Shown: positions 377 through 29,450, numbered from the stretch's first letter. The stretch: DNA of 32,000 nucleotides from Candidatus Saccharimonadota bacterium (GCA_016700135.1 CP065004.1:1170001-1202000); one strand, 5' to 3'. Notes: generated from the letters alone by a model not told the origin. Numbers and translations are program-made.

Positions 377-1093
377 ATGAGATCCCGTCTGTATCAACAT
401 AAACAGCATGAAAACAACAGAAAGTTGTTTGGATTGCTGCTTTTCATACTTATACTGAGCGTATTTATGGTCACGGTAGGATTTCGTTTGCTAATAAACG
501 CGACAATATTTATAAGCGGTTTGATCAACCCGCAATCTGAGGAGACTGCACAGGAAAAGAATAAAGAAGATTTTTACGGAGTCTTTGATCTTGAAGAACC
601 GCCCACTGCTACAAACTCTGCTCAAATATACGTTTCAGGAACTGTTGAAGATTTTGAGAAACTGGATATTTATATCAACAATACGAAAGCGGAGTCAGTG
701 ACTGTAAAAGGGAAGAGCAGTTTTAATGAAAAGATCGGTCCTTTAAAACAAGGTGAAAATAAGATTTATGCCATTGCCAGATCCGGTACCGAACATTCAA
801 AAGAATCTGAGACATATACAGTTTTTTACAAGAAAGAACCTTTAAAACTGGAAATCGAATCACCCTCAGCAGACATGAAAACGTCGACACAGGAACTGAG
901 TATTAAAGGATTGACCGACCAGGGTGCATCACTTCGTGTAAACGGCCAACCGATTGTTGTTGACCTTTCAGGGGAGTTCAGTAGTACTTACCGGCTAAAA
1001 GACGGCGAAAATACCCTGCTGTTTGTAGCAACGGATGCAGCCGGAAATACCGTGGAACAGGAGCTGAAAGTCACGTATCAAAGAGAGGATTGA
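377..1093 (+). CDS. Membrane-anchored protein with two tandem Ig-like/beta-sandwich repeats (hypothetical)
   Basis: 238-aa ORF with a basic N-terminus and a TM helix (LFGLLLFILILSVFMVTVGF). Two repeats follow, each ending in a ...LK.GEN.....A.......Y.V.Y pattern. The ATG begins 1 nt after the tRNA-Thr discriminator base. Confidence 0.75.
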   Translation: MRSRLYQHKQHENNRKLFGLLLFILILSVFMVTVGFRLLINATIFISGLINPQSEETAQEKNKEDFYGVFDLEEPPTATNSAQIYVSGTVEDFEKLDIYINNTKAESVTVKGKSSFNEKIGPLKQGENKIYAIARSGTEHSKESETYTVFYKKEPLKLEIESPSADMKTSTQELSIKGLTDQGASLRVNGQPIVVDLSGEFSSTYRLKDGENTLLFVATDAAGNTVEQELKVTYQRED

Positions 1094-2256: not shown

Positions 2257-3001
2257 GTTTCATCTGTTTGATAAATAACGTACTTCGAACGAGAAATGAG
2301 TGAAAGCTCATCAAAAATGAATACACAAAGCCCGCAGTTCCGTCCTTTAAGCCTCCTTTGATCACATATGTGTAAAGAAACTTCCCGATGGGAAAAGCAA
2401 CTATCTCATACATATTAGTTCGCTTATTCAGCAAGAATAATTCATCGGCGCGGATCTGACTGTACGTATTTATGTGCTGCAGGAACTCATGTATCGTCTG
2501 GTGAGGGTAATGCTCAATAAAACCGTCCAACGATGATATTCGGCCGACAGTGGTCCATTCTTCATGTATCGAACCTTTCCATAAACCGGATCCTTTCTTC
2601 ATCAGGCGAATAATTCCGCGTTTATAAACTTTTGCAACCTCTCCATGCTCGAGGACCCTTCCCATAAACCGGTCCCGTCTTCGCAGATAGTACGCATCGG
2701 CACTCGGTTGTTCCATCTCGTGCCTGATATTTGCCCGCAGATCAGGACTGATTTCTTCATCCGCATCAAGATACAACAGCCAATTGCCTTTCGCCTGCTC
2801 AGCTCCGAGATTTCGCAAATTTGAAAAGTTTCCGGAAGTTTTGTCATATATCACCCGTGCTCCGGCTTCATGTGCTATTTCTCCCGTTTCATCGGTTGAA
2901 TTGTTGTCTATAAGAAGGAGTTCGTCACAAAAAGAAAGTGATTTTAATGCCTGCTGTACAATCTCAGCCTCGTTTTTTGCTATAACAATACCGGTAAGCA
3001 T
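2249..3001 (-). CDS. Family 2 glycosyltransferase
   Basis: 250-aa ORF. The N-terminus GIVIAKNEAEIVQQALKSLSFCDELLLIDNNSTDETGEIA and the downstream LYLDADE (DxD-like) are typical of GT2. Confidence 0.9.
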   Translation of the reverse strand: MLTGIVIAKNEAEIVQQALKSLSFCDELLLIDNNSTDETGEIAHEAGARVIYDKTSGNFSNLRNLGAEQAKGNWLLYLDADEEISPDLRANIRHEMEQPSADAYYLRRRDRFMGRVLEHGEVAKVYKRGIIRLMKKGSGLWKGSIHEEWTTVGRISSLDGFIEHYPHQTIHEFLQHINTYSQIRADELFLLNKRTNMYEIVAFPIGKFLYTYVIKGGLKDGTAGFVYSFLMSFHSFLVRSTLFIKQMKHE

Positions 3002-5342: not shown

Positions 5343-6395
5343 CTATTGTTTAGGAGGTATCAGAGCCATTGCAATCATGAAAGTAATCATCGATGAACCT
5401 CCGTATGAGACAAACGGCAGCGTAATTCCCGCGATCGGCACAATGCCCAAATTCATACCGATATTGACCGCCGTTTGGACAATCATCATCACGGAAAAAC
5501 CCAGCAGATAATAAAATGAATACTGCTCATCATAGTCCCTTCCGTGCATATGTCTGAACATTTGTATAAAAACAAAAAGGAAAAAAATAATGTAGAGAAA
5601 AATAACAATAAAACCACCGATAAACCCGAATTGCTCGACAAGTGATGAAAAAGCAAAGTCAGTGTGGTACTCCGGTAAAAACGAAAGCTGTGACTGCTTG
5701 CCTAAACCCAGACCTTTCCCGAACAAATTCCCGGATCCGACGGCAATATTTGCCTGAACCATATTGTAGGAGGTTCCGGAAGTGTCATGCTCAGGGTCCA
5801 TAAAACTCAAAATTCTTGCTTTTTGATAGTCATGCATTGCAATCCAGGCTACCGGGAGCAAACAAAGGAGAATCAGAAGGAATATCATGATGTGTCTTTT
5901 CGGAATGGAGGAATGAAGCGCCATGACAAAAAAGATTCCGAATACAATAATACTTGTTGCCAGATCAGGCTGTTTATATATGAAAAAAAACGGCAATAAT
6001 GTAAGCATCAGCGTTTTCAGAAATAATCTGCCGTTTTCAATCGGGTTATAGACTTTCGCAAAGATTGTTGAAAGGAAAACAATAAAGAATACTTTAAAGA
6101 TTTCAGAAGTCTGGAGCGGAAAAATATAAAGATCAAGCCATCTGCGTGATCCCTTGATGTCCATCCCGAAAAAAAATGTAATAATCAGGAGGATAAGCGA
6201 AAAAACATAAAAAAAGGAAGCATTCGACCGGAAAAAATGCTTGTGCATTTGGAGATAACGGATAACAAAGAAAAAAGCAATTCCGATCCCGAAATGCATT
6301 AGGGACGTCGTAACTAGATCAGGCCGAATCCCGAATAAATTGATCAGTCCGAAAAGGTAAATAAGCAGTATCGGAAGAAAATACACAAGTGACAT
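5343..6395 (-). CDS. rodA: SEDS-family peptidoglycan glycosyltransferase, RodA-like
   Basis: 350 aa, polytopic. GKGLGLGKQSQLSFLPEYHTDFAFSSLVEQFGFIGG and LPFVSYGGSSM match the RodA-type (Q.SQL.FLPE.HTDF) rather than the FtsW-type motif. Confidence 0.8.
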   Translation of the reverse strand: MSLVYFLPILLIYLFGLINLFGIRPDLVTTSLMHFGIGIAFFFVIRYLQMHKHFFRSNASFFYVFSLILLIITFFFGMDIKGSRRWLDLYIFPLQTSEIFKVFFIVFLSTIFAKVYNPIENGRLFLKTLMLTLLPFFFIYKQPDLATSIIVFGIFFVMALHSSIPKRHIMIFLLILLCLLPVAWIAMHDYQKARILSFMDPEHDTSGTSYNMVQANIAVGSGNLFGKGLGLGKQSQLSFLPEYHTDFAFSSLVEQFGFIGGFIVIFLYIIFFLFVFIQMFRHMHGRDYDEQYSFYYLLGFSVMMIVQTAVNIGMNLGIVPIAGITLPFVSYGGSSMITFMIAMALIPPKQ

Positions 6396-10130: not shown

Positions 10131-11321
10131 TTATTTCTTTCGGAGGAATGCGGGGATATCAAATTCGTCATCGTCACGCACTGATGATGCAGGCTTACGT
10201 TGTACCGGCTCTTCCTGTCTTTGATACGGTTCTTCAGGGGGATAAAGTGAAAAGTCATCTTTTTCTTCTGAGAGAGCAGCTTCTGCTTCAGCTTCCTCTA
10301 TAGTTTTTTCTCGTTTATCTTCTGCATCAGCCTGTTGGGGTCTTTGGAACTTGAAGAGTTTCATCGTACTTTCGTCAAATCGGGTAGCAATTACCGTAAT
10401 CTTTATCTGATCGGTAAGATTCTCATCAATTGCCGCACCGAAAATGATATTTGCATCAGGATCGGCAGCTTTCGTAATCATGGTTGCGGCTTCATCAATT
10501 TCACTCATCGAAAGATCTGATCCTCCGACGATATTCAACAGAATTCCCTTTGCTCCGTCGATAGATGCATCAAGAAGCGGTGAAGAAATTGCCTGACGAA
10601 TGGCACTGATAGCGCGTTTGTCACCCGTTCCGATTCCCATACCCATGATGGCATTACCGGCATTGTCCATGATAGAACGCACATCGGCAAAGTCCACATT
10701 GATAAGTCCCGGAAGGGTAATCAACTCGGCAATACCTTTTACACCCTGATGAAGCACAGAGTCAATCTTCCTGAATGCTTCGACAATAGATGTTTTCTTG
10801 TCAATGACCTGAAGAACACGCTGGTTCGGAATAACAATGAGAGTATCGACGTTACTTTTCAGTAATTCTATTCCCTCTGAAGCCTGATTTTTACGAGGAG
10901 AACCTTCGAAGTCGAACGGTTTTGTAACCACGGCAACGGTGAGTGCACCTGACTCTTTGGCAACTTCTGCCACAATCGGAGAAGCACCTGTCCCGGTCCC
11001 TCCTCCTTCACCGCAGGTTATGAAGATCATATCAGCTGTACCAAGTTCATCTTTCAGTTTTTCCCGGGATTCTTCTGCCGCTTCGCGGCCGACTTCAGGA
11101 TTCCCTCCAGAACCGAGTCCTTTGGTGACCTGATCCCCGATCTGAATTTTTATTTCCGCTTTGTTATGAAGAAGAGCCTGTGCATCAGTATTTACGGCAA
11201 CGAATTCTACGCCTTCGATACCGCCTTCTTTGATCATGGAAGAGATGGCATTCCCGCCGCCTCCGCCTACACCGACTACTTTAATTTTTGCTGCTTGTCC
11301 TGCTTTTGGTTTGATTAACAT
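10131..11321 (-). CDS. ftsZ: Cell division GTPase FtsZ
   Basis: 396 aa: [42 protein letters not shown] (tubulin signature), and the C-terminal [13 protein letters not shown] peptide. Confidence 0.97.
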
Positions 11322-11409: not shown

Positions 11410-12684
11410 TTAGGGAAGAAACTGTTTGAACACTTTCTTCGCCTTAGACATTATATCATTCATTGAGAAGTTTTTCAGAACTGAATTGAAATCTTTGAAA
11501 TTCGCAGGATCCTCAAACATCTGGGAGTTCCCGTAGTAGACAAGTCCGAGCGTCGCGGCATACATCGGATTCATCACTTCGTCGACCAGACCTGTGGCTT
11601 TTTCCGGTACACCCACCCGTATCGGAAGTCTTGCAATCCGTTTTCCCATCTCAACCATACCGACAGTCATCGAACCGCCGCCCGTGATAACGATTCCTGA
11701 AGGGATTGCTTTCTCATAACCGCTTTTACTGAGCTCTTCGGCTACAAAAGAATAAATTTCTTCAATACGCGGACTGATAATACCTTCAATGATTTCTTTC
11801 GGGCTGACGTCTGGAAGTTTTTCCGGAATACCCAGTTTCTCGGAAGTAAGTATATTTTTCTCTTTCTTTTTAATAGCTTCTTCGACACGGCGTGCATTAT
11901 TGCTGAGATACAGTTTCACTTTTTCCGCCGATTCAAGTGAAACCCTCAGACCGACTGCAATATCATTGCTGATGTGTCTTGCACCAATCGGTATGGATGA
12001 AGAAAACGATAAAGCGCCTTCTACAAAAATGCTCATATCAATTTTTCCACCGCCAATATCAACTACAGCCACACCAAGATCCTTCTCAGTGTCCGTAAGA
12101 ACTGCTTCTGCTGCTGCCACACCGGAAAAAATATAGCCCGTATTTTTTATTCCCAGATCATTTAGGACTTTATCGATATTCTTAAGATTGGTTGCTGATG
12201 CTGTGATGATATGGGTGTCTACTTCCAGCCTGACGCCGCTCATCCCCACCGGATTATTGATTCCGCTTTGTCCGTCTACACTGTACTCACGCGGTGTTAC
12301 TTCAATAATCTGCCTGGTATTCGAAAGAGAGATCGCACGGGCTGCTTCTATAACACGCTGAACATCATCTTCGACCACTTCAAACTGAGGATTCGCAACG
12401 GCAACTATCCCATGTGAATTAATCGAAGCTATATGAGGACCTCCGACGGATACATATGCTTCCTTGATCTGATGGCCGGCCATACGTTCTGCTTTTTCCA
12501 CACTTGCCTCGACGGATGCAGTCGCCTGATCAATATCAACAATCAGCCCCTTTTTTACCCCTCTTGAAGGCGTGGCATTGAATCCGATAATCCGGATTTC
12601 ATCAGTCTCAGCTGAGTAAAGTCCGACAATCGTTGCAATTTTTGTGCTGCCGATGTCGATGCCGCAAATGAGTGTTTCCGCCAT
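11410..12684 (-). CDS. ftsA: Cell division protein FtsA (actin-like ATPase)
   Basis: 424 aa: GIDIGSTKIATIVG, VVDIGGGKIDMSIF, GIVITGGGS. It sits immediately upstream of ftsZ. Confidence 0.95.
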   Translation of the reverse strand: MAETLICGIDIGSTKIATIVGLYSAETDEIRIIGFNATPSRGVKKGLIVDIDQATASVEASVEKAERMAGHQIKEAYVSVGGPHIASINSHGIVAVANPQFEVVEDDVQRVIEAARAISLSNTRQIIEVTPREYSVDGQSGINNPVGMSGVRLEVDTHIITASATNLKNIDKVLNDLGIKNTGYIFSGVAAAEAVLTDTEKDLGVAVVDIGGGKIDMSIFVEGALSFSSSIPIGARHISNDIAVGLRVSLESAEKVKLYLSNNARRVEEAIKKKEKNILTSEKLGIPEKLPDVSPKEIIEGIISPRIEEIYSFVAEELSKSGYEKAIPSGIVITGGGSMTVGMVEMGKRIARLPIRVGVPEKATGLVDEVMNPMYAATLGLVYYGNSQMFEDPANFKDFNSVLKNFSMNDIMSKAKKVFKQFLP

Positions 12685-12723
12685 AATCTGTATGAGCCTA
12701 GTGACTTCTTAAAAAATTTATGA

Positions 12724-13494
12724 TCAAAACCGAATAATCGGCTTATCAAAACGCAAATCCAACGTTTCAAACGCTATACCTTCAACTGAAAGCTGCCTAA
12801 GAGACTGTTCGAACTGATACTTCTGCAGCTCAATATCCTTTTCAGAGGAAAATAAAAACGCACTGCTGTCTGTATATAATCCTAGCATATGAAATCCTTC
12901 AATAGCAATACTATTTACCTTGAGTCTTGCATCCTGAACAATCCCCAGGAAATAAAGACTGTCTTCCACTTCCTTAAAGCCGATTTCATCTCCTCTCTGA
13001 AAAGAATTATACGGCACATTCTGATAAAAAGTAATGACCGGTATGCCGGTATTCTCAATTTCCCGGACTTTTTCAAGTATGATACCTTCCGTACTGAGCA
13101 GCAGATAACCGTCTCCGACCATCAGGTATGCTGCCTGGGTCAGTCTGCTTACCTCAACTTCGATTACAGAAGGGTATTTTTTCCCGATCGAAAGGATGCG
13201 GTAATACGGATTGGCATTCGTCAAATACTTCTCAGCTTCGCGAAGATCCAGACGCCAGAGATGCATACCCCTGTACTGGTTCTTTCCTTTAAACGGAAAC
13301 TCCTTTGATTCGCCGTAAACCTTCATCTCTTGTACCCGATAAGCATGATCAATACGATATGCGAGAACAATTGTGAGAGCAAAAATAGTCAGAAATAGCA
13401 AACTAGGTGCGATTTTCCCGGTATATCTCTTCCACAATCCGCTCTGCCGCTTCGGTGATGTATGTTCCTTCAAGTTTTTGGTATGCTCGTTCAT
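12724..13494 (-). CDS. ftsQ: FtsQ/DivIB-like cell division protein (single TM plus POTRA-like domain)
   Basis: 256 aa with a basic N-terminus, the TM helix SLLFLTIFALTIVLAY, and a POTRA-like region (VQEMKVYGES...). It occupies the canonical position between murG and ftsA. The ATG at 13494 overlaps the murG 3' end by 92 nt, so the start is uncertain. Confidence 0.7.
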   Translation of the reverse strand: MNEHTKNLKEHTSPKRQSGLWKRYTGKIAPSLLFLTIFALTIVLAYRIDHAYRVQEMKVYGESKEFPFKGKNQYRGMHLWRLDLREAEKYLTNANPYYRILSIGKKYPSVIEVEVSRLTQAAYLMVGDGYLLLSTEGIILEKVREIENTGIPVITFYQNVPYNSFQRGDEIGFKEVEDSLYFLGIVQDARLKVNSIAIEGFHMLGLYTDSSAFLFSSEKDIELQKYQFEQSLRQLSVEGIAFETLDLRFDKPIIRF

Positions 13495-14536
13495 AGTGTT
13501 CTTTGTTATGTAGTACAGACATGATTAACGAAAGCAAATCTTCAGATTTACCTTCCTGCTCAAATATTTCGGCTGCACCTGCAGTTTTCAAAATGCCGGC
13601 ATGCTTACGCTGCTCATCAAATGCGGCAAGAGGCAAAGGAATCAGGACTGCCGGTTTTTTCAGAGCTACCAGCTCAAAGAATGTATTTGCACCGGATCTG
13701 CTTACAACTACATCCGCTTTTCGGAGCAGCGCCCCAATCTCATCATCGCCGATATGCGTTCTGACGGTATATCTTTGTCTCAGATCTTCAGGTAATGATT
13801 CCCTTACAGCTTTCAACCGTTCATAATCATTATACTCACGAAGATTCCCGGTTTGGTGTATGACTGAACAGCCTTTCAGCAACTCGGGAAGGATTTGTTC
13901 GATATGCTTGTTTATTGCATGAGCTCCGAGTGACCCTCCCGTCACATAAACACACGGGATTCCTGAAGGAGTCGGAATAGTTGTCTTTGCGGTAAATACA
14001 CTTTTCCGGACAGGATTGCCCGTCAATATTGCTTTTGACTTCGGGAAAAAACCGGCTGATTCAGGAAAGGATATAAATACCTTTGCAGCTATACGACCGA
14101 TTTTCCTGTTGGCCAATCCCGGATGTATGGTTTGTTCATGAGTGTACACGGGAATCTTCATCGTCGACGCAACTGCAGCCACAGGGTATGCAAGATATCC
14201 GCCGAAAGAAAGCACCAATTCAGGTTTTTCTGATCGCAAGATCTGCCATGCACGGTAAAAGCCGAAAGGTATCATTATGATATCCTGAAGCGTCCGGAGT
14301 GATATTGTTCTGGTAAATCGACCCGTCACCAAATGATAAAATCGTATTGATCTTCTTTGAATTTCCTTATACTCAAAACTTTCGGTACGTTCCTTGTTGT
14401 TGTTGTATTTCCTGCCGACGAAGACGATCTCAGTCTCGGGAAACTTATCTTCAATCAAATCAATAACTGCAAGCGCAGGGGTGACATGCCCGCCGGTTAT
14501 GATGATTTTCGTAGGCTGCATATGGTATTGTAACAC
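13403..14536 (-). CDS. murG: UDP-GlcNAc:lipid I N-acetylglucosaminyltransferase MurG
   Basis: KIIITGGHVTPALAV (G-loop), VTGGSLGA, and a C-terminal GT28 domain. The track start at 14536 is GTG. ATG 14521 (MQPTKIIITGG...) is the more likely start. Confidence 0.9.
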   Translation of the reverse strand: MLQYHMQPTKIIITGGHVTPALAVIDLIEDKFPETEIVFVGRKYNNNKERTESFEYKEIQRRSIRFYHLVTGRFTRTISLRTLQDIIMIPFGFYRAWQILRSEKPELVLSFGGYLAYPVAAVASTMKIPVYTHEQTIHPGLANRKIGRIAAKVFISFPESAGFFPKSKAILTGNPVRKSVFTAKTTIPTPSGIPCVYVTGGSLGAHAINKHIEQILPELLKGCSVIHQTGNLREYNDYERLKAVRESLPEDLRQRYTVRTHIGDDEIGALLRKADVVVSRSGANTFFELVALKKPAVLIPLPLAAFDEQRKHAGILKTAGAAEIFEQEGKSEDLLSLIMSVLHNKEHYERAYQKLEGTYITEAAERIVEEIYRENRT

Positions 14537-14538
14537 GC

Positions 14539-15657
14539 TTATGTCTTTGTCTGACGGGCAACATTTATCGCAATTCCCAAAAGCATACAGGACGCAAGCA
14601 TTGATGATCCTCCGTATGAAACGAAAGGCAGAGTCACACCAGTCAGAGGCATAATATTCACCATTCCGCCGAGATTTATAATAATTTGGAGACCGAAGTA
14701 CGTAAAAATGCCTCCGATTAACAATTTCCCGAACCGATCATCAACGGAATTGTACAACTGATACAGCTTATACAAAAACACAAAGTACAGTGTGATAATG
14801 AGAAAGCTGCCGACGAAGCCGAGCTCTTCGCTGATAATTGCAAAAATAGAATCGGTATGAGCTTCAGGAAGAAATAAATACTTTTGCCTTGATGCACCGA
14901 AGCCTCTTCCGAACAGACCGCCTTCCGTGACGGATATCAGGATCTGATTGATATGAAATCCCACACCGAGCGGATCATTTTCGGGATTGAGAAACGCAGT
15001 CAGACGTTTGAGACGATAAGGAGCGGCAAAAATGAGCCCGGCAAATCCGATGACCGCAACGGGAGCCAGCGCGAGCAGATACCGCAGATCCTGACCTCCG
15101 AGAAAATACATCGCAATTCCGAGAGAAAATACCATGATTGCAGTTCCCATATCAGGCTGCAGCATTATAAGTAAAAGGAGAAAACCCAAGAGAAGAACAA
15201 ACGGTAAAAACCTGCTTTTTTCCTTTTTTGAGAACCAGGAGGCCAAATAGAGGATAATAGCAAACTTGGTAAACTCGGTCGGCTGAACGGTAATAAAACC
15301 CAGATTAATCCAGCTTCTTGCTCCGCCTGCCGTATGCCCAATGCCGGGAATAAGCACCACAATGAGTAGAAGAATAACTCCGATCATTGCAGGAATGGAT
15401 AAAAAGTAAAGGTTTTTGTAGTTGTACCACGAAAAAAAACCTAAAACGATCGAGCCGAAAAATATCCATCTCAGTTGAAGTTTGAGATAATGAAAACTGT
15501 CTCCGGTTGCGTTCAGTGCACGTATCGAGGAAGCTTCAAACACAAATATCAGACCGATGAATACAAGAAGAACCGCAATAATAAGAAGCACCCATGTCAT
15601 CGTCAATCCGTTTCCTTCTTTCTCGACCTTTCTCAGTCTTTTGTGCCTCTTACGCAT
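14539..15657 (-). CDS. ftsW: SEDS-family lipid II polymerase FtsW
   Basis: 372 aa, polytopic. DPLGVGFHINQ, RQKYLFLPEAHTDSIFAIISEELGFVG and LPFVSYGGSSM. It sits in the dcw position between murD and murG. Confidence 0.9.
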   Translation of the reverse strand: MRKRHKRLRKVEKEGNGLTMTWVLLIIAVLLVFIGLIFVFEASSIRALNATGDSFHYLKLQLRWIFFGSIVLGFFSWYNYKNLYFLSIPAMIGVILLLIVVLIPGIGHTAGGARSWINLGFITVQPTEFTKFAIILYLASWFSKKEKSRFLPFVLLLGFLLLLIMLQPDMGTAIMVFSLGIAMYFLGGQDLRYLLALAPVAVIGFAGLIFAAPYRLKRLTAFLNPENDPLGVGFHINQILISVTEGGLFGRGFGASRQKYLFLPEAHTDSIFAIISEELGFVGSFLIITLYFVFLYKLYQLYNSVDDRFGKLLIGGIFTYFGLQIIINLGGMVNIMPLTGVTLPFVSYGGSSMLASCMLLGIAINVARQTKT

Positions 15658-16876
15658 ACTGTTTCACAAACTTCTGAAACTGATCGCCTTTTTCAACAAA
15701 ATTTTTCCAGAGACTATAACTGGGTGATGCGGTAGATAAAAGACAAACACTGAGCGGAGGGGCATGATTGTATGCAAATGCAACCGCTTCCTCCATGCTC
15801 TGGGTCTCACAGATATTCCAGAAGGAACGATCAACCTCAAAAAGTGCAGTTTTGATCCGTGCTCCTGACTCGGGAAAAAGCACAATATTTTTTATACACG
15901 TTTCCCTCAATTCACTTGCCAGTTCAAGAAAGTCATATCCGCGGTCCTCACCACCCAAGAAAATGGTACTGATACCCGGAATTGCTTTTACGGCTGCAAT
16001 TGTGGATTCAGGCGTTGTTGAGATCGCATCGTCATAAAAGGTAATCCGTTTAAAGGTCCCGACTTTCTGCAGCCGATGCGGCAACGGATTGAATGATTGG
16101 ATCGCATCTTCCGCCTCGCGATACGATACCCCGCACAGAGATGTCACTGTGATGGCCCCTCTGATATTGTCAACATTGTGCTGTCCGAGCAGGGGAATCC
16201 GTTCGGGAATAAAGTCATTCTCATACGGTTTCGGCTGTGCTGATGTCGTTTTTGTCCACTCCGAAAGACGAGTAAACGCAGGATTATATACATAGTAATC
16301 CGTTTTCTCTGCATGCGCGATCATCCGGTGTTTCGCTTCATAGTAATTGTCAAGCGTACCGTGATATGGGACATGATCCGGAAACAGACTCACAATAAGA
16401 GAAATATGAGGTGAGAACTGAATGTCTGACAACTGATAGCTGGACAATTCACAAACGATATACACGGTCTGTTCGTGTTCCTCGTTAAAAAAATCAAGAA
16501 GGGGTTTACCGATATTGCCCAGAAGTTCCGTTTGTCTGCCTGTTTGAGAAAAAATATGATGAATAAGCGATGCCGTTGTACTTTTACCTTTTGTCCCCGT
16601 CACACCGATCGTTACATGTTTCTTATCAAGATTTGCAAAAAAAATATTAGTGGCAGTTGTATACGGTACAGTAATCTCCTGTGCTCTGATGCCCGGTGTT
16701 TTAATGACCAGATCGAACTCTGATTGCTTTTTCAGGTAATCCTCACCGTCCTTGCGGTCAGTTATTTCAAATGTCGCAGACGGCACAAATTTCCTGAGAA
16801 AATTCTCCGTCGATTTTCCCTCAATACCATACCCCGCAATCAAAATACGTTTGTTCATCAAGTCTTGAATCTTCAT
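15650..16876 (-). CDS. murD: UDP-N-acetylmuramoyl-L-alanine--glutamate ligase (MurD family; possibly an L-Glu-adding MurD2 type)
   Basis: 408 aa: N-terminal Rossmann ILIAGYGIEGKS, Mur ligase P-loop GVTGTKGKSTT, and DDAISTTPEST. It has a 4-nt ATGA overlap with the upstream PP-loop gene and an 8-nt overlap with ftsW. Confidence 0.88.
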   Translation of the reverse strand: MKIQDLMNKRILIAGYGIEGKSTENFLRKFVPSATFEITDRKDGEDYLKKQSEFDLVIKTPGIRAQEITVPYTTATNIFFANLDKKHVTIGVTGTKGKSTTASLIHHIFSQTGRQTELLGNIGKPLLDFFNEEHEQTVYIVCELSSYQLSDIQFSPHISLIVSLFPDHVPYHGTLDNYYEAKHRMIAHAEKTDYYVYNPAFTRLSEWTKTTSAQPKPYENDFIPERIPLLGQHNVDNIRGAITVTSLCGVSYREAEDAIQSFNPLPHRLQKVGTFKRITFYDDAISTTPESTIAAVKAIPGISTIFLGGEDRGYDFLELASELRETCIKNIVLFPESGARIKTALFEVDRSFWNICETQSMEEAVAFAYNHAPPLSVCLLSTASPSYSLWKNFVEKGDQFQKFVKQYA

Positions 16877-18195
16877 ATCATTGTTCTGAACTGCTCAGGT
16901 ATAACCGAGCGGTCAATATTGGTAACTTCTTTTTCAAGGGTTGTTATATCAAGTTTAGGCAAAATCTGTTGTTCAAACAGATCCATGACAGGTGTCCCTT
17001 TATATTCTCCCTGTGAAGCAGCTTTCACCATTGCAAGCTTCACCTCATCAGGAGTACCGACACATTCAAATGGCTTAAAGCCGCTTACACCCAGAAGTTC
17101 CTTGTAAAGCGGGATAAGATCAGCCTGAGCATACATATTCGTTTGAAACAAATCAGTAAGCTCCTTTTTTGAGATATGTGCCGATAAAAGTGCAAAAACA
17201 AACGCACATTTCGGACAGGTCCCGCACCATCTCGGTGAATTTTCATGCTCAATGATATTAAAATTTCTGTTGCAGCTGGAAAACGATGAAAAATATTCGG
17301 GATACTTAGAAAACAGTTCGACAATGGTGTATTCCGAATACGGTCGCAGCAGCGATACATACAGCAAATCAGAAGATATAAATTTCCCGATATATGTCTG
17401 AAACAATGTTTCAAATTCACGCGATTTGCTCCACTGATGATTGACCGTTTCGCCTAGATACTCGACATTGCCGTAGTCAGCGCTTCGTTCATTACTTGTG
17501 ATCAGGCCGTCATATCCGTACAATGCGGCTGTCAGGATACCGATACAGGCATACACCGCCGAGACAGGAATATGGCCGTTAGTGACGCCTTCTTTTTTAT
17601 TTATTGCAAAAAGCTGAGGATCAATAATGCGTTTTATCCGTATTGCATCGAGTTTCATGGAACTAAGAACGGTTTCAATTAGCGGATAGCTTTTCTGCGT
17701 TTCCACCACAAATCCGTCTGCATTTATCTGATTTTTTTTAAGAATCTCCGCGGAAAGGATTGAGTCTTTACCACCCCCGACGCCGATCAGATACCGATTA
17801 CTCTTTTTCATTGTTTGTGGAGTTTGTGTTTGATTTTCATCAAAAGGGAACTTCACAAGGCCGCGGAAATCTATTTCGTTCCGGTAATAAAACTCCCCCA
17901 ATCCTTTGGTATATACCGTATTCCAGAAGTCAGCCTGTGCGGGTGTAAGTGAATACCCTTCAATGATTATCTCTTTCGGACAATACGTTTTCCAGTAACT
18001 GAGTCCGAGGACGATATGCACAGTCTGCAACAACGCATGAAGAAGAGTTTCAGGAATAGAATGTACTTCCCTGTTAGGTAATATAAGATTCTCGGTAAAA
18101 CGAAGTTCCTCTCCTTCGTGCCTTATTTTGTAATGAAAGCTCATGACAGAAGAATGGATATCGGAAGTGTAACCTTCAAAGATAAACTGACTCAT
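16873..18195 (-). CDS. PP-loop ATP-pyrophosphatase-superfamily protein; candidate MurL-type UDP-MurNAc-L-Ala-L-Glu epimerase
   Basis: 440 aa. IGVGGGKDSILS is a PP-loop of the SGGxDS type. A QueC-like Cys cluster follows (SSC...17 aa...WCGTCPKCAF). It is translationally coupled (ATGA) to murD. The CDS call is confident, the product call is moderate. Confidence 0.6.
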   Translation of the reverse strand: MSQFIFEGYTSDIHSSVMSFHYKIRHEGEELRFTENLILPNREVHSIPETLLHALLQTVHIVLGLSYWKTYCPKEIIIEGYSLTPAQADFWNTVYTKGLGEFYYRNEIDFRGLVKFPFDENQTQTPQTMKKSNRYLIGVGGGKDSILSAEILKKNQINADGFVVETQKSYPLIETVLSSMKLDAIRIKRIIDPQLFAINKKEGVTNGHIPVSAVYACIGILTAALYGYDGLITSNERSADYGNVEYLGETVNHQWSKSREFETLFQTYIGKFISSDLLYVSLLRPYSEYTIVELFSKYPEYFSSFSSCNRNFNIIEHENSPRWCGTCPKCAFVFALLSAHISKKELTDLFQTNMYAQADLIPLYKELLGVSGFKPFECVGTPDEVKLAMVKAASQGEYKGTPVMDLFEQQILPKLDITTLEKEVTNIDRSVIPEQFRTMI

Positions 18196-18201
18196 ATGTA
18201 T

Positions 18202-18207
18202 ATTATA
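18202..18207 (-). promoter_or_regulatory. -10 box TATAAT 6 nt upstream of the ATG of the PP-loop/murD/ftsW... operon
   Basis: The minus strand reads CAT-TATAAT-ATACAT-ATG(18195). No SD is present. Confidence 0.45.
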
Positions 18208-18246
18208 ATGAATAACTGCAGTTAAGACGTACCATTATCACTAATT

Positions 18247-18495
18247 ATGAAAACCCCGGGAACGATCATTCTATACGGTAGGCACGATTGCCGGGACTGC
18301 CAAAGCATCAAAAATTTTTTGGATGTTCACGGTATTCCCTATCTGTATATCGACATAGATGAGCATCCTTCCGCTGCTCTTGAAGTCACGAATCAAACAA
18401 ACGGTTATCAAAAGATTCCTCTTCTGGTGTTCCCTGACAAAACAGTGCTTATTGAACCGAATATTGAAGAAATTGAAGAAAAAATAAAAGGTTAA
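18247..18495 (+). CDS. Glutaredoxin/NrdH-like small thioredoxin-fold protein
   Basis: 82 aa: IILYGRHDCRDCQSIKNFLDVHGIPYLYIDID (CxxC after beta1), and ...IPLLVFPD... carrying the cis-Pro region. Confidence 0.8.
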   Translation: MKTPGTIILYGRHDCRDCQSIKNFLDVHGIPYLYIDIDEHPSAALEVTNQTNGYQKIPLLVFPDKTVLIEPNIEEIEEKIKG

Positions 18496-20843
18496 GGGAC
18501 CGCGTTTCTGACTTCCTGAACCGGTTTGTCACCCTGCTTAATTACGGTTTGCTGGCAATAACTTTTCCGCTCTGTGCCTCTCAGGAAGTATTCCACCCGG
18601 CCGTTATAACAGGGCATGGAGACAACATTAACCGGTTGCGGCATCTTGCCTGCGGCATCATGTTCCTCAATCATATATTTCATAATCCGGTTAAAGATAG
18701 GTCCGGCACCGAGCGAACCGGCAATGCTGTGCATTGAACTGTTGTTATTGTTCCCGACCCAGACTCCGACTACTACTTTGTCGGTAAATCCGATCGTCCA
18801 TGCATCTTTGTAATCATTTGTTGTTCCCGTCTTTGCCGAGACTATTTCGTCCTTAACATGCAGCGGATTATTTACTCCGAAGGCCTGCTGTCTTGCTGTA
18901 TTGTCAGAAAGAATATCTGAAATGATAAAAGCTACACCTTCATTGAGAACACGAGTCTTTGTACTGCGGATATGGGTCACATCCTTTTCCCGTGAATCCT
19001 TAATCTCCACAAACGGAGTCGGTTCCACCCTATATCCGCCGTTGGCAAATACGCTGTATACCTGTGTCAGATCTACGAGAGTTACTTCTCCGCCGCCGAG
19101 TGCTATTGACAAACCGAACCGTGATGATTCCTCCCAGGTGTCGATTCCCATGGTTTTGGCAAAATCTACAAACGGTTGTACACCCATGGTGTTTAGAACT
19201 TTAATAGCAGGAACATTATATGAATTTCCGAGGGCGTAACGTATCGGAACCCTTCCGTGATACCTTCTGTCGTAATTGACCGGTTGATACGGTTCGGCAC
19301 CGGCAATATTGAACACAATAGGTGAGTCGTCGATAGGTGTTGCAGCCGTATATCCGTTTTCAAGAGCCATGGCATACAGCATCGGCTTCAGCGTAGAACC
19401 GGGTTGACGCTGAGCGGTCGTGACATTGAACGCTCCGTAGTTTTCTCCGAAATAATTTACTGATCCCACCATTGCGAGAATCTGACCGGTGTTGGGGTCC
19501 ATTACAATTACACCACCGTTTGACGCATTAAGCGGCTGCAGCTTTTCTACTTCTTCCCGTAAAATTTCTTCAGCCTTCGTCTGAATATCAAGATCCAAAG
19601 ACGTCACAATATTAAAACCTGATTCTTCAACTTTTTTCGTGCCGAATTCGTTTTCAAGTGCGGTCCGGGTATACATGACAAAATGCGGGGCACGGATGTT
19701 TGTGGTCGGAGGGAGCACAGTAAGATCTTCCTGTATCGCATTTTCAAACTGATTTTTGGAAATATAGTGCTGAAGATACATTTCCTGCAGCACCTGATCA
19801 CGCCTTCTTTCGGCTAGGTCAGGATCGATAAAAGGCGAATAAATGGAAGGCGCTCTGGGAAGACCAGCCAGCAATGCCGCTTCTCCGAGCGTGAGTTCCT
19901 GAGCGGTTTTACCGAAATATACTTTTGAAGCCTCTTCAATGCCGTATGCAGAACCGCCGTACGGCACCTGATTCAGATACATTTCCATAATTTCATCTTT
20001 TGTATACATCTGTTCCGTCCATAGTGCGAGCACCATCTCTTTGAGTTTTCTTTCAATAGTCCGTTCAGGAGTAAGGAGAGCCGTTTTTACCAGCTGCTGT
20101 GTGATAGTCGATCCTCCCTGTAGTTCATTGTAAATAAATGAATCTTTTGCTGCCCGCAGAATACCTCCGAAAAAGGAAATCCCTTTGTGATTGTAAAAAT
20201 TCTTATCTTCAATCGCAATAGTCGCCTGAATGACCGCTTTCGGAACTGAAGAAAGCGGCACGGAGGTACGGTTCACATCCCGATAAATCGCGTACAGCAA
20301 TTTCCCGTTCCGGTCATACAAATGAGTAGATTGAGCAAAATTTACCTGACCGATCGCAGCAGGTGACGGCAGTTCACGCACAAAAAAGTATGCCTGTTGG
20401 ATAAACAGAAACAGTAAACAAAACAAAAATCCGTATACAAAATACTGAAAATATTTACTTGTCAAAAAAGAGTAAAAAGAAGCAATCAGATGAATAATTC
20501 CTAAAAATATTCCTTCAATTATTGCAATAATCTGTTTCGCAATCGAAATGAGAAACAACGGAGTATTTTTAATAACATACCAAAGAAATGATCCTGTCTG
20601 CTTTAGACCGTATGAGACTGCACCGGCAGAGTTTGTACCGGCGGCGCCAATATTTTTAACAGTTATAAGTGAAGACACTTTTTGAGTAAGATAGCGCAAA
20701 GAAGTATAAGGAAATAAAACAGCCCGCATTACGGATTTCCCGACATATACTACAACGACCGTCCAAACATACAGAAGAAAAAAGATACTCCGTAAAATTG
20801 CATTTTTAAGCATGCGAAATGATAGTCGTATTTCACTTGACAT
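18492..20843 (-). CDS. Class A penicillin-binding protein (GT51 glycosyltransferase plus transpeptidase) with an extended multi-TM N-terminus
   Basis: 783 aa. GT51 motifs: AIEDKNFYNHKGI, GGSTITQQLVK, RKLKEM. Transpeptidase motifs: PGSTLKP (SxxK), SYN (SxN), KTGTT. Confidence 0.92.
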   Translation of the reverse strand: MSSEIRLSFRMLKNAILRSIFFLLYVWTVVVVYVGKSVMRAVLFPYTSLRYLTQKVSSLITVKNIGAAGTNSAGAVSYGLKQTGSFLWYVIKNTPLFLISIAKQIIAIIEGIFLGIIHLIASFYSFLTSKYFQYFVYGFLFCLLFLFIQQAYFFVRELPSPAAIGQVNFAQSTHLYDRNGKLLYAIYRDVNRTSVPLSSVPKAVIQATIAIEDKNFYNHKGISFFGGILRAAKDSFIYNELQGGSTITQQLVKTALLTPERTIERKLKEMVLALWTEQMYTKDEIMEMYLNQVPYGGSAYGIEEASKVYFGKTAQELTLGEAALLAGLPRAPSIYSPFIDPDLAERRRDQVLQEMYLQHYISKNQFENAIQEDLTVLPPTTNIRAPHFVMYTRTALENEFGTKKVEESGFNIVTSLDLDIQTKAEEILREEVEKLQPLNASNGGVIVMDPNTGQILAMVGSVNYFGENYGAFNVTTAQRQPGSTLKPMLYAMALENGYTAATPIDDSPIVFNIAGAEPYQPVNYDRRYHGRVPIRYALGNSYNVPAIKVLNTMGVQPFVDFAKTMGIDTWEESSRFGLSIALGGGEVTLVDLTQVYSVFANGGYRVEPTPFVEIKDSREKDVTHIRSTKTRVLNEGVAFIISDILSDNTARQQAFGVNNPLHVKDEIVSAKTGTTNDYKDAWTIGFTDKVVVGVWVGNNNNSSMHSIAGSLGAGPIFNRIMKYMIEEHDAAGKMPQPVNVVSMPCYNGRVEYFLRGTERKSYCQQTVIKQGDKPVQEVRNAVP

Positions 20844-20849
20844 ACGGAT

Positions 20850-20858
20850 ATTTTAACA
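20850..20858 (-). promoter_or_regulatory. Extended -10 TGtTAAAAT 6 nt upstream of the PBP ATG
   Basis: The minus strand reads TGTTAAAAT-ATCCGT-ATG(20843). No SD is present. Confidence 0.5.
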
Positions 20859-20982
20859 AAACTATAGGGCAAGTAAAAGGGTAAGTTATTATCCTTTTTG
20901 ATTGAGTAATATCCTGTTTGAAGTATTCGGAGACTATATCAGAAAGTTATAACCACTCAATGAGGTATTTCTTACAAATGTA

Positions 20983-21729
20983 TCAGTTGGCTGTATTTCT
21001 AACAATCCGTGCCTTTACAATCAACCGTTCTTTGTAAGTCCCCGGAGGCACGCATGTCACAAGGGTAAGGTATGAATCATCAAATTCCTGTTCCAGGACC
21101 GAGACTTCATCCGGTTCGACAATAAACATATCTACTACTTCATATGTGTATTGCTTGCCTTCTACGCTCACATCTATTCTGTCTCCGACATCAAGCTTGG
21201 GAAGGTAGGTAAATACTGACTTGTAGTCTTTCGCATTGTAAAGCTGCGGTAATGTAGAGTGGCCGAAAATGGCTACATTTCCGTATTGGCCCGGTATGGA
21301 AGTCGGTAAATAATGAATAAGGCTTTTCGAAAGATCTTCTCCTCCGACATCTACATTGAGATCTTTCAGGTTCAGCTTCGGAATGGAAAGTGAGTAAGAT
21401 TTTACTACCAGATCGCCGTTCGGTGTCGGAAGTTTGCTTTCGGGAAACCAGACGTTGGCGTTTGTGAAATCTCTGAGATTACTGGAAAAGAGCGTGTTGG
21501 AGGCGTAAACACTTTTGGCAAATTCCAGTGCAGAAACCGACTCTGATTCCGGTAGTGGTGATGCGGCATCTTTTTTGAGAAATACCCGCGCATACAATTC
21601 GAATGACACAATAGGATACAAGGCCCAGAATAAGAAACCCATTCCTGCCAGCAAAACGACATAAGACGCGGCACGAACCACTTTCTTCTTTCTCGAAGTT
21701 TCTTCTTTTTTATATACGCGAAGCGGCAT
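20983..21729 (-). CDS. Sortase-family transpeptidase
   Basis: 248 aa with an N-terminal TM helix, catalytic His (VAIFGHSTLP), TLxTC (YLTLVTCVP) and Arg (ERLIVKARI). It starts 1 nt after the stop of the upstream 709-aa gene. Confidence 0.9.
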   Translation of the reverse strand: MPLRVYKKEETSRKKKVVRAASYVVLLAGMGFLFWALYPIVSFELYARVFLKKDAASPLPESESVSALEFAKSVYASNTLFSSNLRDFTNANVWFPESKLPTPNGDLVVKSYSLSIPKLNLKDLNVDVGGEDLSKSLIHYLPTSIPGQYGNVAIFGHSTLPQLYNAKDYKSVFTYLPKLDVGDRIDVSVEGKQYTYEVVDMFIVEPDEVSVLEQEFDDSYLTLVTCVPPGTYKERLIVKARIVRNTAN

Positions 21730-25446: not shown

Positions 25447-26853
25447 ATGCTTTCCGAAATGACGTCAAAACAGAAAATTCTGGCCGGTATTGCAGGCCTA
25501 TTTCTTATACTGGCGATCCTAATCGGAGCATCGTGGACCTATGTCCGATTAACAGTGAAAGACACTATCTATCCCCGTACCTATATTGACGGAATCGATA
25601 TGGGTTATAAAACAAAGGAAGAAGCCCTGAACCTTTTGTCTAAAAGGGATGAGTATTACAATGATGCCCTGATTGAGGTGATGTACAAAGATGCGAAAAT
25701 TGCATCATTTTCAGGACAGGAGCTAAAACTGGAGCGTGATATTGACACAAAAGTAGATCAGGCATACCTTATCGGACGGACCGATCATCTTCCGTCACGT
25801 ATCGCGCAGCAGCTGAATACGCTTTTGAAGATCCGTACGTTTTCATTTGATACCGAGGTACGCTATAATAACGGAGTCATTGACCAGTTTGTCAAACAGT
25901 CGGAAGATGTATACAACCGTGAGCCGAAGAATGCATTGTTCACTTTCGAAAACGGGAAAGTAACTTCGTTTAAGGCAGATGAACCCGGCATGAAGCTCAA
26001 GTCCGAAGAATTTCTTATGAATTTGAAAAAGGAAATTCAGTCAATTTCCGATAAAAAGAAGAATATTGTAATCTCGTTCAAGGAAGAAGAAATAAAGCCG
26101 GAAATCACCCTTGCGGAAGCGAATGACTTCGGTATCGAGGAACTGATCGGCGAAGGAAAATCCGATTATACGCACTCCATTCCTTCACGCGTCCACAATC
26201 TGATCTTGGCGGCTTCAAAATTCGACGGAGTGATCATTCCGAAGGGTGAGACATTTTCATTCAATACCCTTGTCGGCGATATTTCATCAAGTACCGGTTA
26301 TCAGCCGGCATATGTCATCAAGAACGGAAGAACGGTACTCGGTGACGGAGGCGGTGTATGCCAGGTCTCAACAACCATGTTCCGGGCAGCTCTCAATACG
26401 GGATTGCCTATCTCAGAAAGACACGCACATGCATACCGTGTATCATACTATGAAAATGACTCGGAACCGGGTTTTGATGCTACTATTTATTCCCCGACAG
26501 TAGATCTGAAATTTAAGAATGATACTCCGGGAGCAATCCTTATTCAGATGGAAGTAGATAAAGATCAGAAACTGCTTACATTCAGATTTTACGGGAAAAA
26601 AGACAACAGAAAGGTTGAGATTTCACCGGCTACAGTCTGGGATGTAGCCCCTCCACCCGAACCGCTGTATGAAGATGATCCGACTCTTCCGAACGGTACC
26701 ATCAAACAGGTAGACTACCCGGCGTGGGGTGCAAAAGCAAAGTTCGAATACAAAGTGTTTGATAAGAACGGAGAGGTCATGCAGAACGAAACATTTTATT
26801 CTTCATATCGTCCGTGGCAGGCAGTGTACTTACGCGGAACGGCCGGAACTTAA
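25447..26853 (+). CDS. VanW-family protein (TM-anchored)
   Basis: 468 aa with an N-terminal TM helix. The VanW core is GETFSFN...GGGVCQVSTTMFRAALNTGLPISERHAHAYRVSYY. Confidence 0.9.
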   Translation: MLSEMTSKQKILAGIAGLFLILAILIGASWTYVRLTVKDTIYPRTYIDGIDMGYKTKEEALNLLSKRDEYYNDALIEVMYKDAKIASFSGQELKLERDIDTKVDQAYLIGRTDHLPSRIAQQLNTLLKIRTFSFDTEVRYNNGVIDQFVKQSEDVYNREPKNALFTFENGKVTSFKADEPGMKLKSEEFLMNLKKEIQSISDKKKNIVISFKEEEIKPEITLAEANDFGIEELIGEGKSDYTHSIPSRVHNLILAASKFDGVIIPKGETFSFNTLVGDISSSTGYQPAYVIKNGRTVLGDGGGVCQVSTTMFRAALNTGLPISERHAHAYRVSYYENDSEPGFDATIYSPTVDLKFKNDTPGAILIQMEVDKDQKLLTFRFYGKKDNRKVEISPATVWDVAPPPEPLYEDDPTLPNGTIKQVDYPAWGAKAKFEYKVFDKNGEVMQNETFYSSYRPWQAVYLRGTAGT

Positions 26854-28211: not shown

Positions 28212-29450
28212 ATGTCAGCATCACGACTCAAACGAATAGAAAAACGAAACAATGTTCTGAAGCTCTCCCTGATATCGCTGGGGCTGGTGTTTCTTGTGTC
28301 CGTGGGACTGATCATTACGAGACTTTTGGGATTTTACAACGCTATTCATACGGAAGCACAGGAAAGTCCTGATAACGTACAAAAAGAAGAAAAAACCGAG
28401 TACACCTTTCTCCTTCTCGGATACGGCGGAGGATCGCATGAAGGGACATATCTGACTGATTCGATCATGGTAGCCAACGTGGATATCAAAAACAAACGGG
28501 CAATCCTGGTATCGCTTCCGCGGGATATCTGGGTACGGGTACCGACGAAAAACGGAGAAGAATTCCACAGCAAAATCAATGCTCTCTACCAGATGGGTAT
28601 TAACCCGAAAAATTACCCCGCGGTTGATACCAAATCTCTTACTGAAGATAATCCGTCAGGTCTTCTCAAACAGGCTGCCGAAGATATCACCGGATTGAAC
28701 ATTGATGCCTTTGCTGCAGTGGACTTTGAGGGTTTTGTCAAAACTATCGATACGTTGGGAGGCATTGATGTCAATGTCAAAAAGACATTTACTGATTATG
28801 AATACCCGATCGAAGAAAAAATGAATGATCTCTGCGGACGGGATGAGGAATTCAAGCAGATTGAACCGATTATCAATAAGCAAATGACTGAAGAGGATCA
28901 AAAAAAGCTTTTTGAAGAAAAGCCCGAACTGGAACAATTTTACAAAGACATAAAAGATCATCCCCGCACGGCATTTCCCTGCCGGTATGAAGTCCTGCAC
29001 TTCGACGCAGGAGAAACACATATGGACGGAATCACCGCTCTCAAGTATGCCCGTTCCCGTCATGCCCTTGAAGACGGGGGAGATTTCAACCGGGCACAGA
29101 GACAGCAGAACGTCATAGAAGCGGCAAAACAGAAAATTTTGGGAATAGGCTTCATTCCGAAGATTATTCCTCTTCTCAATGAACTAGAACAGCACGTAAA
29201 AACGGATTTACCGCTTTCAGAAATGAATAAGCTTTTGCTTGAAGGCAGAAACGCGAATAACTACAAGGTAGAAACACTGGTTTTATCTGACAAATTTCTG
29301 ACTGATGACTACTCCGATTACGGCGGATACATTCTGGTCCCGAAGGTAGGGAAAGACGACTGGAGTGCAATACGCAAAGAGATTCAAAACATGAAACTCG
29401 GCATCACTCCCTCCCCTACTCCCCAACCGTCAATTACTCCTGAGAAGTAA
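28212..29450 (+). CDS. LytR-CpsA-Psr (LCP) family cell-wall glycopolymer transferase
   Basis: 412 aa with an N-terminal TM helix. FLLLGYGGGSHEGTYLTDSIMVANVD...ILVSLPRDIWV, LKYARSRH...GDFNRAQRQQNVI. Confidence 0.9.
   Translation: MSASRLKRIEKRNNVLKLSLISLGLVFLVSVGLIITRLLGFYNAIHTEAQESPDNVQKEEKTEYTFLLLGYGGGSHEGTYLTDSIMVANVDIKNKRAILVSLPRDIWVRVPTKNGEEFHSKINALYQMGINPKNYPAVDTKSLTEDNPSGLLKQAAEDITGLNIDAFAAVDFEGFVKTIDTLGGIDVNVKKTFTDYEYPIEEKMNDLCGRDEEFKQIEPIINKQMTEEDQKKLFEEKPELEQFYKDIKDHPRTAFPCRYEVLHFDAGETHMDGITALKYARSRHALEDGGDFNRAQRQQNVIEAAKQKILGIGFIPKIIPLLNELEQHVKTDLPLSEMNKLLLEGRNANNYKVETLVLSDKFLTDDYSDYGGYILVPKVGKDDWSAIRKEIQNMKLGITPSPTPQPSITPEK

Follow-up and report, generated by a model that had tools for sequence, protein, structure and literature searches.

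D-Glutamate (D-Glu) is universal at position 2 of the peptidoglycan stem peptide, and its supply is a target for antibiotics. How a bacterium of the candidate phyla radiation (CPR; also called Patescibacteria) obtains this residue is the question raised by two adjoining genes in the 32,000-nucleotide (nt) stretch of DNA considered here, CP065004.1:1170001-1202000, referred to below as the window, which takes in about 2% of a 1.45-Mb genome. Both genes are encoded on the minus strand: a 440-amino-acid (aa) open reading frame (ORF) at 16873..18195, whose product is identical (100%) to the NCBI entry "hypothetical protein IPM65_06300" of Candidatus Roizmanbacteria, and a 408-aa murD ORF at 15650..16876. 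An initial annotation had put the pair forward as a candidate MurD2/MurL route to D-Glu. Our results favor this proposal, at a probability that we put at about 0.78: the window pair, murL and murD, would constitute a racemase-independent route in which L-Glu is ligated first and then epimerized on the peptidoglycan precursor.

The chemistry of such a route (L-Glu ligation, AMP formation, and one-way L-to-D epimerization) comes from the enzymes of Xanthomonas, Micromonospora, and Salinispora, and MurL is described as requiring ATP and Mg2+ and as releasing AMP (PMC8788868, PMC5808125). What the present analysis adds in its support is the homology of the 440-aa protein to MurL, a PP-loop fold, the conservation of motifs, the MurD2 clade and signature of the ligase, and the linkage and frequent fusion of the two proteins. 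In the window, a MurD2-type enzyme would ligate L-Glu, converting ATP to ADP; a second ATP would then be used at the PP-loop of MurL, where the alpha-carboxylate of the terminal L-Glu would be adenylated with release of AMP and pyrophosphate (PPi). Adenylation would acidify the alpha-proton, which could be removed and returned from the opposite face to give inversion; this last step could conceivably pass instead through an oxazolone, or through a thioester formed transiently on C378 of MurL. The glutamate racemase MurI also supplies the D-Glu stereocenter of peptidoglycan, but it does so reversibly and with no cofactor, on free glutamate and with a fold that is unrelated, whereas the substrate of MurL is a nucleotide-linked dipeptide and its reaction uses up ATP and runs in one direction only. 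We infer that the organism obtains its D-Glu mainly through the MurL/MurD route.

Identity and predicted fold of MurL

Homology to MurL, which the initial annotation had been unable to verify, proved to extend from end to end. NF041275, the NCBIfam equivalog profile for MurL, aligned with residues 3-436 of the 440-aa protein over profile positions 9-439 of 447 (E=1.7e-109; 366 bits, a score below the equivalog cutoff, as taken up below). BLASTP gave 38% identity (E=1e-82) to the PGAP-annotated MurL of Xanthomonas sacchari, which itself scores 836 bits on NF041275. A search of Pfam-A returned no match for the protein, in a copy of the library that lacked PF26298 and PF26299; the protein database lists these two families for every MurL homolog, and both are evidently newer than the copy searched. 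No QueC, TilS, TtuA, or NAD synthetase family was matched in Pfam or NCBIfam, and an hhalign comparison with E. coli QueC gave a probability of 2%, with only the PP-loop aligned. The initial annotation had set against its own proposal the case of a protein with no similarity to MurL and a clear match to another PP-loop family; profile and BLAST searches found the similarity and no such match.

Several motifs of the protein, all given here in minus-strand coordinates, bear on the proposed chemistry. The PP-loop GVGGGKDS (residues 138-145, 17761..17784) is the predicted site for the alpha- and beta-phosphates of ATP during adenylation, and the segment NHQWSK (residues 252-257, 17425..17442) offers candidate active-site residues. 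Four cysteines with the spacing C308-x15-C324-x2-C327-x2-C330 (the Cys4 cluster, 17206..17274) probably form a structural Zn site, and the segment KPFECVG (17056..17076) contains C378, a candidate acid/base or thioester residue. Conservation was assessed in three alignments, one of 101 homologs, one of 129 sequences that included distant non-CPR proteins, and one of 120 MurL-MurD fusion proteins (described below) together with Xanthomonas MurL.

The PP-loop and the four-Cys cluster, on which the initial annotation had relied, were borne out in all three. Among the 101 homologs, G141, G142, K143, and the four cysteines never vary, with D144 and S145 conserved at 90% or more; among the 129 sequences, the PP-loop residues are conserved at 95-100% and the four cysteines at 100%. 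In the third alignment, G141, G142, K143, S145, and the four cysteines are again invariant, with G140 present in 117/120 fusions and D144 in 118/120, and Xanthomonas MurL has all six PP-loop residues. C378, a fifth cysteine that had gone unremarked in the initial annotation, is invariant across all three alignments, Xanthomonas included. NHQWSK is invariant in the 120 fusions and Xanthomonas MurL, and in the 101 homologs so are all of its residues but W255 (at least 90%); H208, E236, E262, and E384 are further conserved residues not remarked on before. The window and Xanthomonas proteins thus share full-length homology, the same length, the PP-loop, NHQWSK, the Cys4 cluster, and KPF[DE]C. They differ in that the window MurL is a deeply divergent CPR protein and scores below the NCBIfam cutoff.

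The literature describes MurL as having no known domain, and reviews call the mechanism of the epimerase unclear (PMC8788868, PMC5808125). No MurL structure was found in the PDB, where a sequence search gave only insignificant matches to the PP-loop of TtuA. An AlphaFold2 model built from the 101-sequence alignment was predicted with high scores (predicted local distance difference test [pLDDT], 95.5; predicted TM-score [pTM], 0.94), and in it GGGKDS follows a strand at residues 134-138, as expected of an SGGxDS-type loop, which lies where the first strand of a Rossmann-like domain ends. The credible Foldseek matches of this model in the PDB were all PP-loop ATP pyrophosphatases (probabilities of 0.9-1.0, best E=4.6e-4), among them TtuA, MJ 3k32, the QueC-like Cap9, QueC, NMN/NAD synthetase, MnmA, ThiI, and argininosuccinate synthetase, with carbapenam synthetase also among the fold matches; a few MurL homologs carry a precomputed match to PF03054. 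This fold fits the release of AMP and PPi, as it is the one expected for carboxylate adenylation that forms those products.

The model shares with QueC, Cap9, and TtuA the PP-loop pyrophosphatase fold (Foldseek target TM-scores of 0.58-0.61 for QueC and Cap9), AMP-forming adenylation, and a C-x(n)-C-x2-C-x2-C pattern after the nucleotide-binding domain. Unlike them, MurL has an additional N-terminal domain of about 125 residues and a C-terminal helical domain, has no significant similarity to them beyond the PP-loop, and would lead to epimerization rather than to nitrile formation or thiolation of other substrates. The predicted structure thus places MurL in the PP-loop superfamily, and the sequence comparison places it outside the QueC family. 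The likeness to QueC seen in the initial annotation holds for the fold and the cysteine pattern and not for membership in the family, which we rejected for lack of a family match and of a significant hhalign result. By analogy with QueC, the Cys4 cluster is probably a structural metal (Zn) site; structural Zn seems preferable to an oxygen-labile iron-sulfur cluster since ATP and Mg2+ were, according to the reviews, all that the recombinant Xanthomonas enzyme required. C378, NHQWSK, H208, E236, and E384, singly or in combination, could supply the acid/base or thioester chemistry.

The X. sacchari murL used for comparison came from a mislabeled replicon in the plasmid collection PLSDB (L014, NZ_CP010410.1, 508 kb). 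The "plasmids" of that collection include many whole or partial chromosomes, such as this 508-kb record with murL, murD, lysC-lysA, and ssb and multi-megabase records of E. coli, Acinetobacter, Neisseria, and Nonomuraea, which calls for caution with plasmid statistics. Separately, stand-alone actinobacterial MurL homologs (L015, H2, and H4) were seen on mobilizable plasmids beside WD40 and helix-turn-helix genes; the one on Pseudonocardia alni plasmid pPaSha1 (L015:5959-7359) scores 323 bits on NF041275 and has the PP-loop, Cys4 cluster, and C378 intact.

MurD type and linkage to MurL

Which enantiomer the partner ligase adds cannot be read from its family assignment. The window MurD matches PF08245 and PF02875 (Mur_ligase_M and Mur_ligase_C) and scores 255 bits on TIGR01087, but since the genuine MurD2 ortholog of Xanthomonas also passes this profile, with 298 bits, TIGR01087 cannot tell the substrate enantiomers apart. 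Individual residues are more informative. E197, R358, P433, and F435 of Xanthomonas oryzae MurD2 correspond to D182, K348, A414, and L416 of E. coli MurD; the substitutions E197D and R358K each alter the stereospecificity of MurD2 and together switch its preference, P433A and F435L leave its specificity unchanged, and K319T allows E. coli MurD to accept L-Glu (PMC8788868, PMC5808125).

We therefore compared these positions, in E. coli numbering, among 10 canonical MurDs drawn from a range of classes and phyla, 11 MurDs encoded next to or fused with MurL (X. sacchari MurD2 and the window protein among them), and the 120 fusions. All 10 canonical enzymes have K at 319, within DSK[AG]TN, with K or R at 348, A or S at 414, and L, F, W, or Y at 416. 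The 11 MurL-linked enzymes have I, N, or F at 319 and never K, R at 348 and an aromatic residue at 416 in all cases, and P at 414 in 10 of 11. The fusions have I, N, A, or V at 319, again never K, with P323, R348, and P414 in 120/120 each and Y or F at 416. K319 is accordingly found in 0/131 MurL-linked ligases versus 10/10 canonical MurDs, and its loss is a signature of L-Glu ligases that is derived in the present analysis. Arg at 348 is not unique to MurD2, as the MurDs of Bacillus and Staphylococcus have it too.

The window MurD follows the MurL-linked pattern at most of these positions (minus strand throughout). It has Ile in place of canonical K319 in DAISTTP (residues 283-289, 16010..16030), Arg at the site of E. 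coli K348 and X. oryzae R358 in GGEDRGYDF (residues 308-316, 15929..15955), and Pro and Tyr at the sites of A414 and L416 (X. oryzae P433 and F435) in ASPSYS (residues 383-388, 15713..15730); at the site of E. coli D182 and X. oryzae E197 it has Asp, in PDH (residues 166-168, 16373..16381). The segments DAISTTP, EDRGY, and SPSY of the window protein correspond to DSISTTP, HDRGL, and APSF in Xanthomonas MurD2. In the phylogeny that the initial annotation had called for, a neighbor-joining tree over 401 columns with 300 bootstraps, all 11 MurL-linked MurDs, including Xanthomonas MurD2, grouped apart from the canonical enzymes with 93% support, in a small sample and by a distance-based method only. 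The window protein shares with Xanthomonas MurD2 this clade, the Arg and Pro at R358 and P433, aromatic character at F435, and Ile for K319 (ISTTP), and it differs from it in overall identity (27%), in the Asp at E197, and in length (408 aa versus 478 aa). Phylogeny and most signature residues thus support the classification of the window MurD as MurD2-type. The earlier claim that this murD encodes an L-Glu ligase gains from the MurD2 clade, from the loss of K319, and from the presence of R348, P414, and Y416, and it loses from the Asp at the E197 determinant.

The two genes are also physically joined. The TGA of murL and the ATG of murD overlap by 4 nt (ATGA, 16873..16876, minus strand, read directly from the sequence), so that the ORFs and the overlap are as first described; L001 and L002, two close relatives, have the same 4-nt overlap, and the window MurD aligns with Xanthomonas MurD2 from residue 1. 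From the overlap, MurL and MurD would be expected to be cotranslated by translational coupling. The order murL then murD, with overlapping genes, is also that of Xanthomonas.

Linkage extends well beyond the window. All nine CPR loci recovered with a MurL query have MurD adjacent or fused, and in five of them the two form one continuous ORF of 814-870 aa (L003:9863-12475; L004:9980-12508; L006:9983-12529; L007:9923-12439; L009:9980-12424). When one fusion was used to query a protein database, the best 120 matches were all fusions, of 778-913 aa, and the 120th still scored 833 bits, so that the number of distinct fusion proteins (P0121-P0240) is a lower bound of at least 120. Both MurL Pfam families and Mur_ligase_M are present in all 120 of these listed fusions and Mur_ligase_C in most. 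Their hosts are Moranbacteria, Buchananbacteria, Gracilibacteria, and other lineages of the Parcubacteria group. These fusions have the same modules and signature residues as the window proteins, to which they are 45-52% identical, but as one chain, whereas the window modules are separate, coupled genes.

An exhaustive search of 1.84 billion representatives of clusters at 50% identity put the size of the MurL family at 2606 (E<=1e-3), 1940 (1e-10), or 1177 (1e-30), and 22 of 147 newly retrieved representatives were fusions; MurL comes first in 21 of these and MurD in the remaining one (P0375). The occurrence of both domain orders suggests that fusion arose more than once. An AlphaFold2 model of one fusion (P0124, 834 residues; pLDDT, 92.4; pTM, 0.85) is compatible with a fixed mutual arrangement of the domains. 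The L-Glu product is the only substrate known for the enzyme to which the fused ligases are joined, and fusion is therefore strong evidence that these ligases make it.

Database names point the other way. All named fusions but one (P0208) are called "D-glutamate ligase" (for example, P0124, P0129, and P0132), and the Xanthomonas MurD2 ortholog (L014:7139-8575) is itself named "UDP-N-acetylmuramoyl-L-alanine--D-glutamate ligase" under NCBI/JGI naming. Judged by their sequences, the substrate enantiomer of MurD2-type and fused proteins has probably been misannotated systematically.

Competing readings of the gene pair

Several observations weigh against the proposed route. First, the 366 bits of the window MurL fall short of the 700 bits that NCBI sets as the equivalog cutoff for NF041275. 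The CPR, actinobacterial, and fusion homologs tested all score below 700 as well (242-386 bits), and since every homolog tested from outside the Xanthomonadales does so, this cutoff marks a clade rather than a function; a score below a cutoff tuned to the Xanthomonadales also explains why PGAP left the window gene "hypothetical". Second, MurL homologs with intact motifs also occur with no MurD neighbor, on Pseudonocardia plasmids and in Kofleriaceae (L011 and L012), and homology by itself therefore does not fix the substrate. It is the linkage and the MurD2 signature, not membership in the family, that carry the substrate argument for the window pair.

Third, the Asp at the E197 determinant is the sole signature position of the window MurD that looks canonical, and given that E197D altered the stereospecificity of X. 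oryzae MurD2, the window enzyme might accept D-Glu as well. Position 182 is E in 106 of the 120 fusions, D in 13, and G in one. From this comparison, Asp at 182 is compatible with obligate coupling to MurL, yet it leaves room for relaxed specificity. Fourth, P414 and Y416 are clade markers rather than proven determinants, because mutation of P433 and F435 had no effect. Finally, our view covers 32 kb of the 1.45-Mb genome: none of murI, a D-amino-acid aminotransferase gene, and a gene for a racemizing DapF is among the 33 ORFs scanned in the window (about 2% of the genome), and genes for MurI, Dat, or a moonlighting DapF may lie in the rest of it. At least one CPR bacterium has a MurI with experimentally shown activity, according to a 2024 work by Penalver and colleagues referenced in PMC11974145.

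In the best surviving alternative, the pair would be a backup or relaxed system, in which MurD takes L-Glu as well as D-Glu, the latter supplied by a MurI, Dat, or moonlighting DapF encoded elsewhere in the genome, and MurL rescues the L-Glu product as a supplement or a form of proofreading and not as the only route. The Asp at the E197 determinant, the effect of E197D in X. oryzae MurD2 (PMC8788868, PMC5808125), the coverage of a single 32-kb window, the active MurI of some CPR bacteria (the work referenced in PMC11974145), and the ability of Chlamydia DapF to racemize Glu, as given in PMC5885031, would all be in keeping with this. Against it stand the placement of the window MurD in the MurD2 clade and the loss of K319, a lysine retained by all 10 canonical D-Glu ligases and missing from the window MurD as from all the MurL-linked and fused ligases, and 13/120 obligately coupled fusions also have Asp at the E197 site. 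Small CPR genomes, moreover, rarely keep redundant pathways. On balance, we regard a backup or relaxed system as unlikely.

A different chemistry is more doubtful still, and we consider it quite improbable. Here, the PP-loop enzyme would adenylate the alpha-carboxylate of Glu in the MurD product so that it can be modified, by amidation (giving iso-glutamine, for example, in the manner of PP-loop enzymes of the asparagine or NAD synthetase type) or in some other way, and MurD would be an ordinary D-Glu ligase. PP-loop enzymes do often couple adenylation to amidation, with NAD and carbapenam synthetases among the fold matches of MurL, and both the score below the equivalog cutoff and the family members with no MurD beside them would suit some diversity of function. 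Yet all residues invariant in the family are common to the Xanthomonas-type enzyme over its full length, Pfam scans of the window found no glutaminase or amidotransferase domain or neighbor, and the ligase carries the MurD2 signature. That an unrelated PP-loop enzyme of the QueC or tRNA-thiolation type lies upstream of murD by chance, as the QueC-like cysteine pattern, the fold matches to QueC and TtuA, and the naming of a few homologs as QueC by JGI might suggest, is effectively refuted by the absence of any QueC, TilS, or TtuA match in Pfam or NCBIfam, by an hhalign alignment with E. coli QueC that is not significant and covers the PP-loop only, and by the fusion to MurD in hundreds of proteins.

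Gene neighborhood and wider meaning

The murL-murD pair opens a tight, codirectional run of genes, murL-murD-ftsW-murG-ftsQ-ftsA-ftsZ, with junctions of -4, -8, +2, -92, +39, and +88 nt. Pfam matches identified ftsW (14539..15657), murG (13403..14536), ftsA (11410..12684), and ftsZ (10131..11321), and the run also contains an ftsQ-like gene with no Pfam match (12724..13494); all are on the minus strand. As ftsW, murG, and the rest lie directly downstream at short or negative spacing, this murD occupies the housekeeping slot of a division and cell wall (dcw) cluster, whereas the Xanthomonas pair lies beside lysC/lysA. The murG and ftsQ-like ORFs, as listed, overlap by 92 nt (13403-13494), and the true start of the latter is probably a codon further downstream.

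The initial annotation also had the 440-aa gene heading the dcw operon. It is the first gene of the packed run, and the gene upstream, which bounds the cluster, is divergent; the dcw genes commonly found upstream (mraZ to mraY, murE, and murF) are absent from the 32-kb window, and a promoter and terminator consensus scan of 12500..18700 found sites no commoner than in shuffled sequence and none upstream of murL. That the operon starts at murL is thus suggested by gene orientation only. By eye, a perfect TATAAT that the consensus scan did not report lies at 18202-18207 on the minus strand, ending 6 nt before the murL ATG, and the 51-nt divergent intergenic region shows no recognizable -35 box or Shine-Dalgarno sequence; the murL mRNA may be leaderless or nearly so. 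The divergent gene encodes a glutaredoxin (18247..18495, plus strand; PF00462, E=2e-10), which we considered as a redox partner for the Cys-rich MurL and rejected: it is kept as a neighbor only in the two closest relatives, L001 and L002, and so probably lies outside the system. Recent horizontal transfer of murL-murD was likewise rejected, as base composition is even across the window with no anomaly, and the genes look native.

The remainder of the window is rich in cell envelope genes, at 1078-6395 and 18492-29450. These encode a class A penicillin-binding protein (18492..20843), a sortase (20983..21729), a VanW protein with PG_binding_4 (25447..26853), a LytR-CpsA-Psr protein (28212..29450), a second SEDS (shape, elongation, division, and sporulation) protein (5343..6395), a Wzy_C O-antigen-ligase-like protein (1078..2256), and a family 2 glycosyltransferase (2249..3001). 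A 709-aa ORF at 21731-23860 (minus strand), directly upstream of the sortase gene, has as its sole Pfam match a weak one to Baseplate_J (E=3e-4); since it adjoins that gene, it may encode a sortase substrate or surface protein. In an Rfam scan of the window, only two tRNAs reached the gathering score, tRNA-Thr (CGT; 303-376, plus strand) and tRNA-Val (CAC; 3315-3388, minus strand).

The MurD2/MurL pathway has been known since 2017, and reviews from 2018 and 2021 list it in genera of the Xanthomonadales, a few Alphaproteobacteria, and rare actinomycetes, with MurL homologs of low similarity in cyanobacteria, a fungus, and an amoeba; they call its distribution limited and propose the route as a narrow-spectrum target on the basis of few genera (PMC8788868, PMC5808125). 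The CPR go unmentioned in these two reviews, and nothing on MurL in the CPR was found in the literature searched. Already known, then, are the pathway, the Pfam families for the protein, and a few correct names given to CPR-like homologs by JGI/NCBI. The present results add, as a useful extension rather than a new category, the CPR-wide pattern, the frequency with which the two proteins are fused, the assignment of MurL to the PP-loop enzymes, and the loss of K319 as a signature of L-Glu ligases. They widen the known taxonomic range to Candidatus Roizmanbacteria and, in fused form, to many CPR lineages. For the window itself, they provide a functional annotation for a "hypothetical protein" and a reannotation of murD.

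A broader claim can be made with less assurance. We hold it somewhat more probable than its contrary that the MurD2/MurL route is the principal source of peptidoglycan D-Glu in much of the CPR, this Roizmanbacterium included, often as a bifunctional MurL-MurD enzyme that could channel the L-Glu intermediate between its active sites, with MurL as a PP-loop adenylating enzyme whose Cys4 cluster would form a metal site like that of QueC and whose invariant cysteine would be catalytic. The 2024 study by Penalver and colleagues reportedly found at most one Glu or Ala racemase per CPR genome; if so, many CPR genomes would have no known source of D-Glu. The route, if it is as widespread as proposed, would account for the absence of a glutamate racemase from many CPR genomes, and hundreds of "D-glutamate ligase" entries would really be L-glutamate ligase/epimerases. 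For the mechanism of the epimerase, the PP-loop fold and the invariant cysteines provide a structural basis and residues for mutation. For the ultrasmall, racemase-poor bacteria of the CPR, the route offers a testable answer to how D-Glu is supplied.

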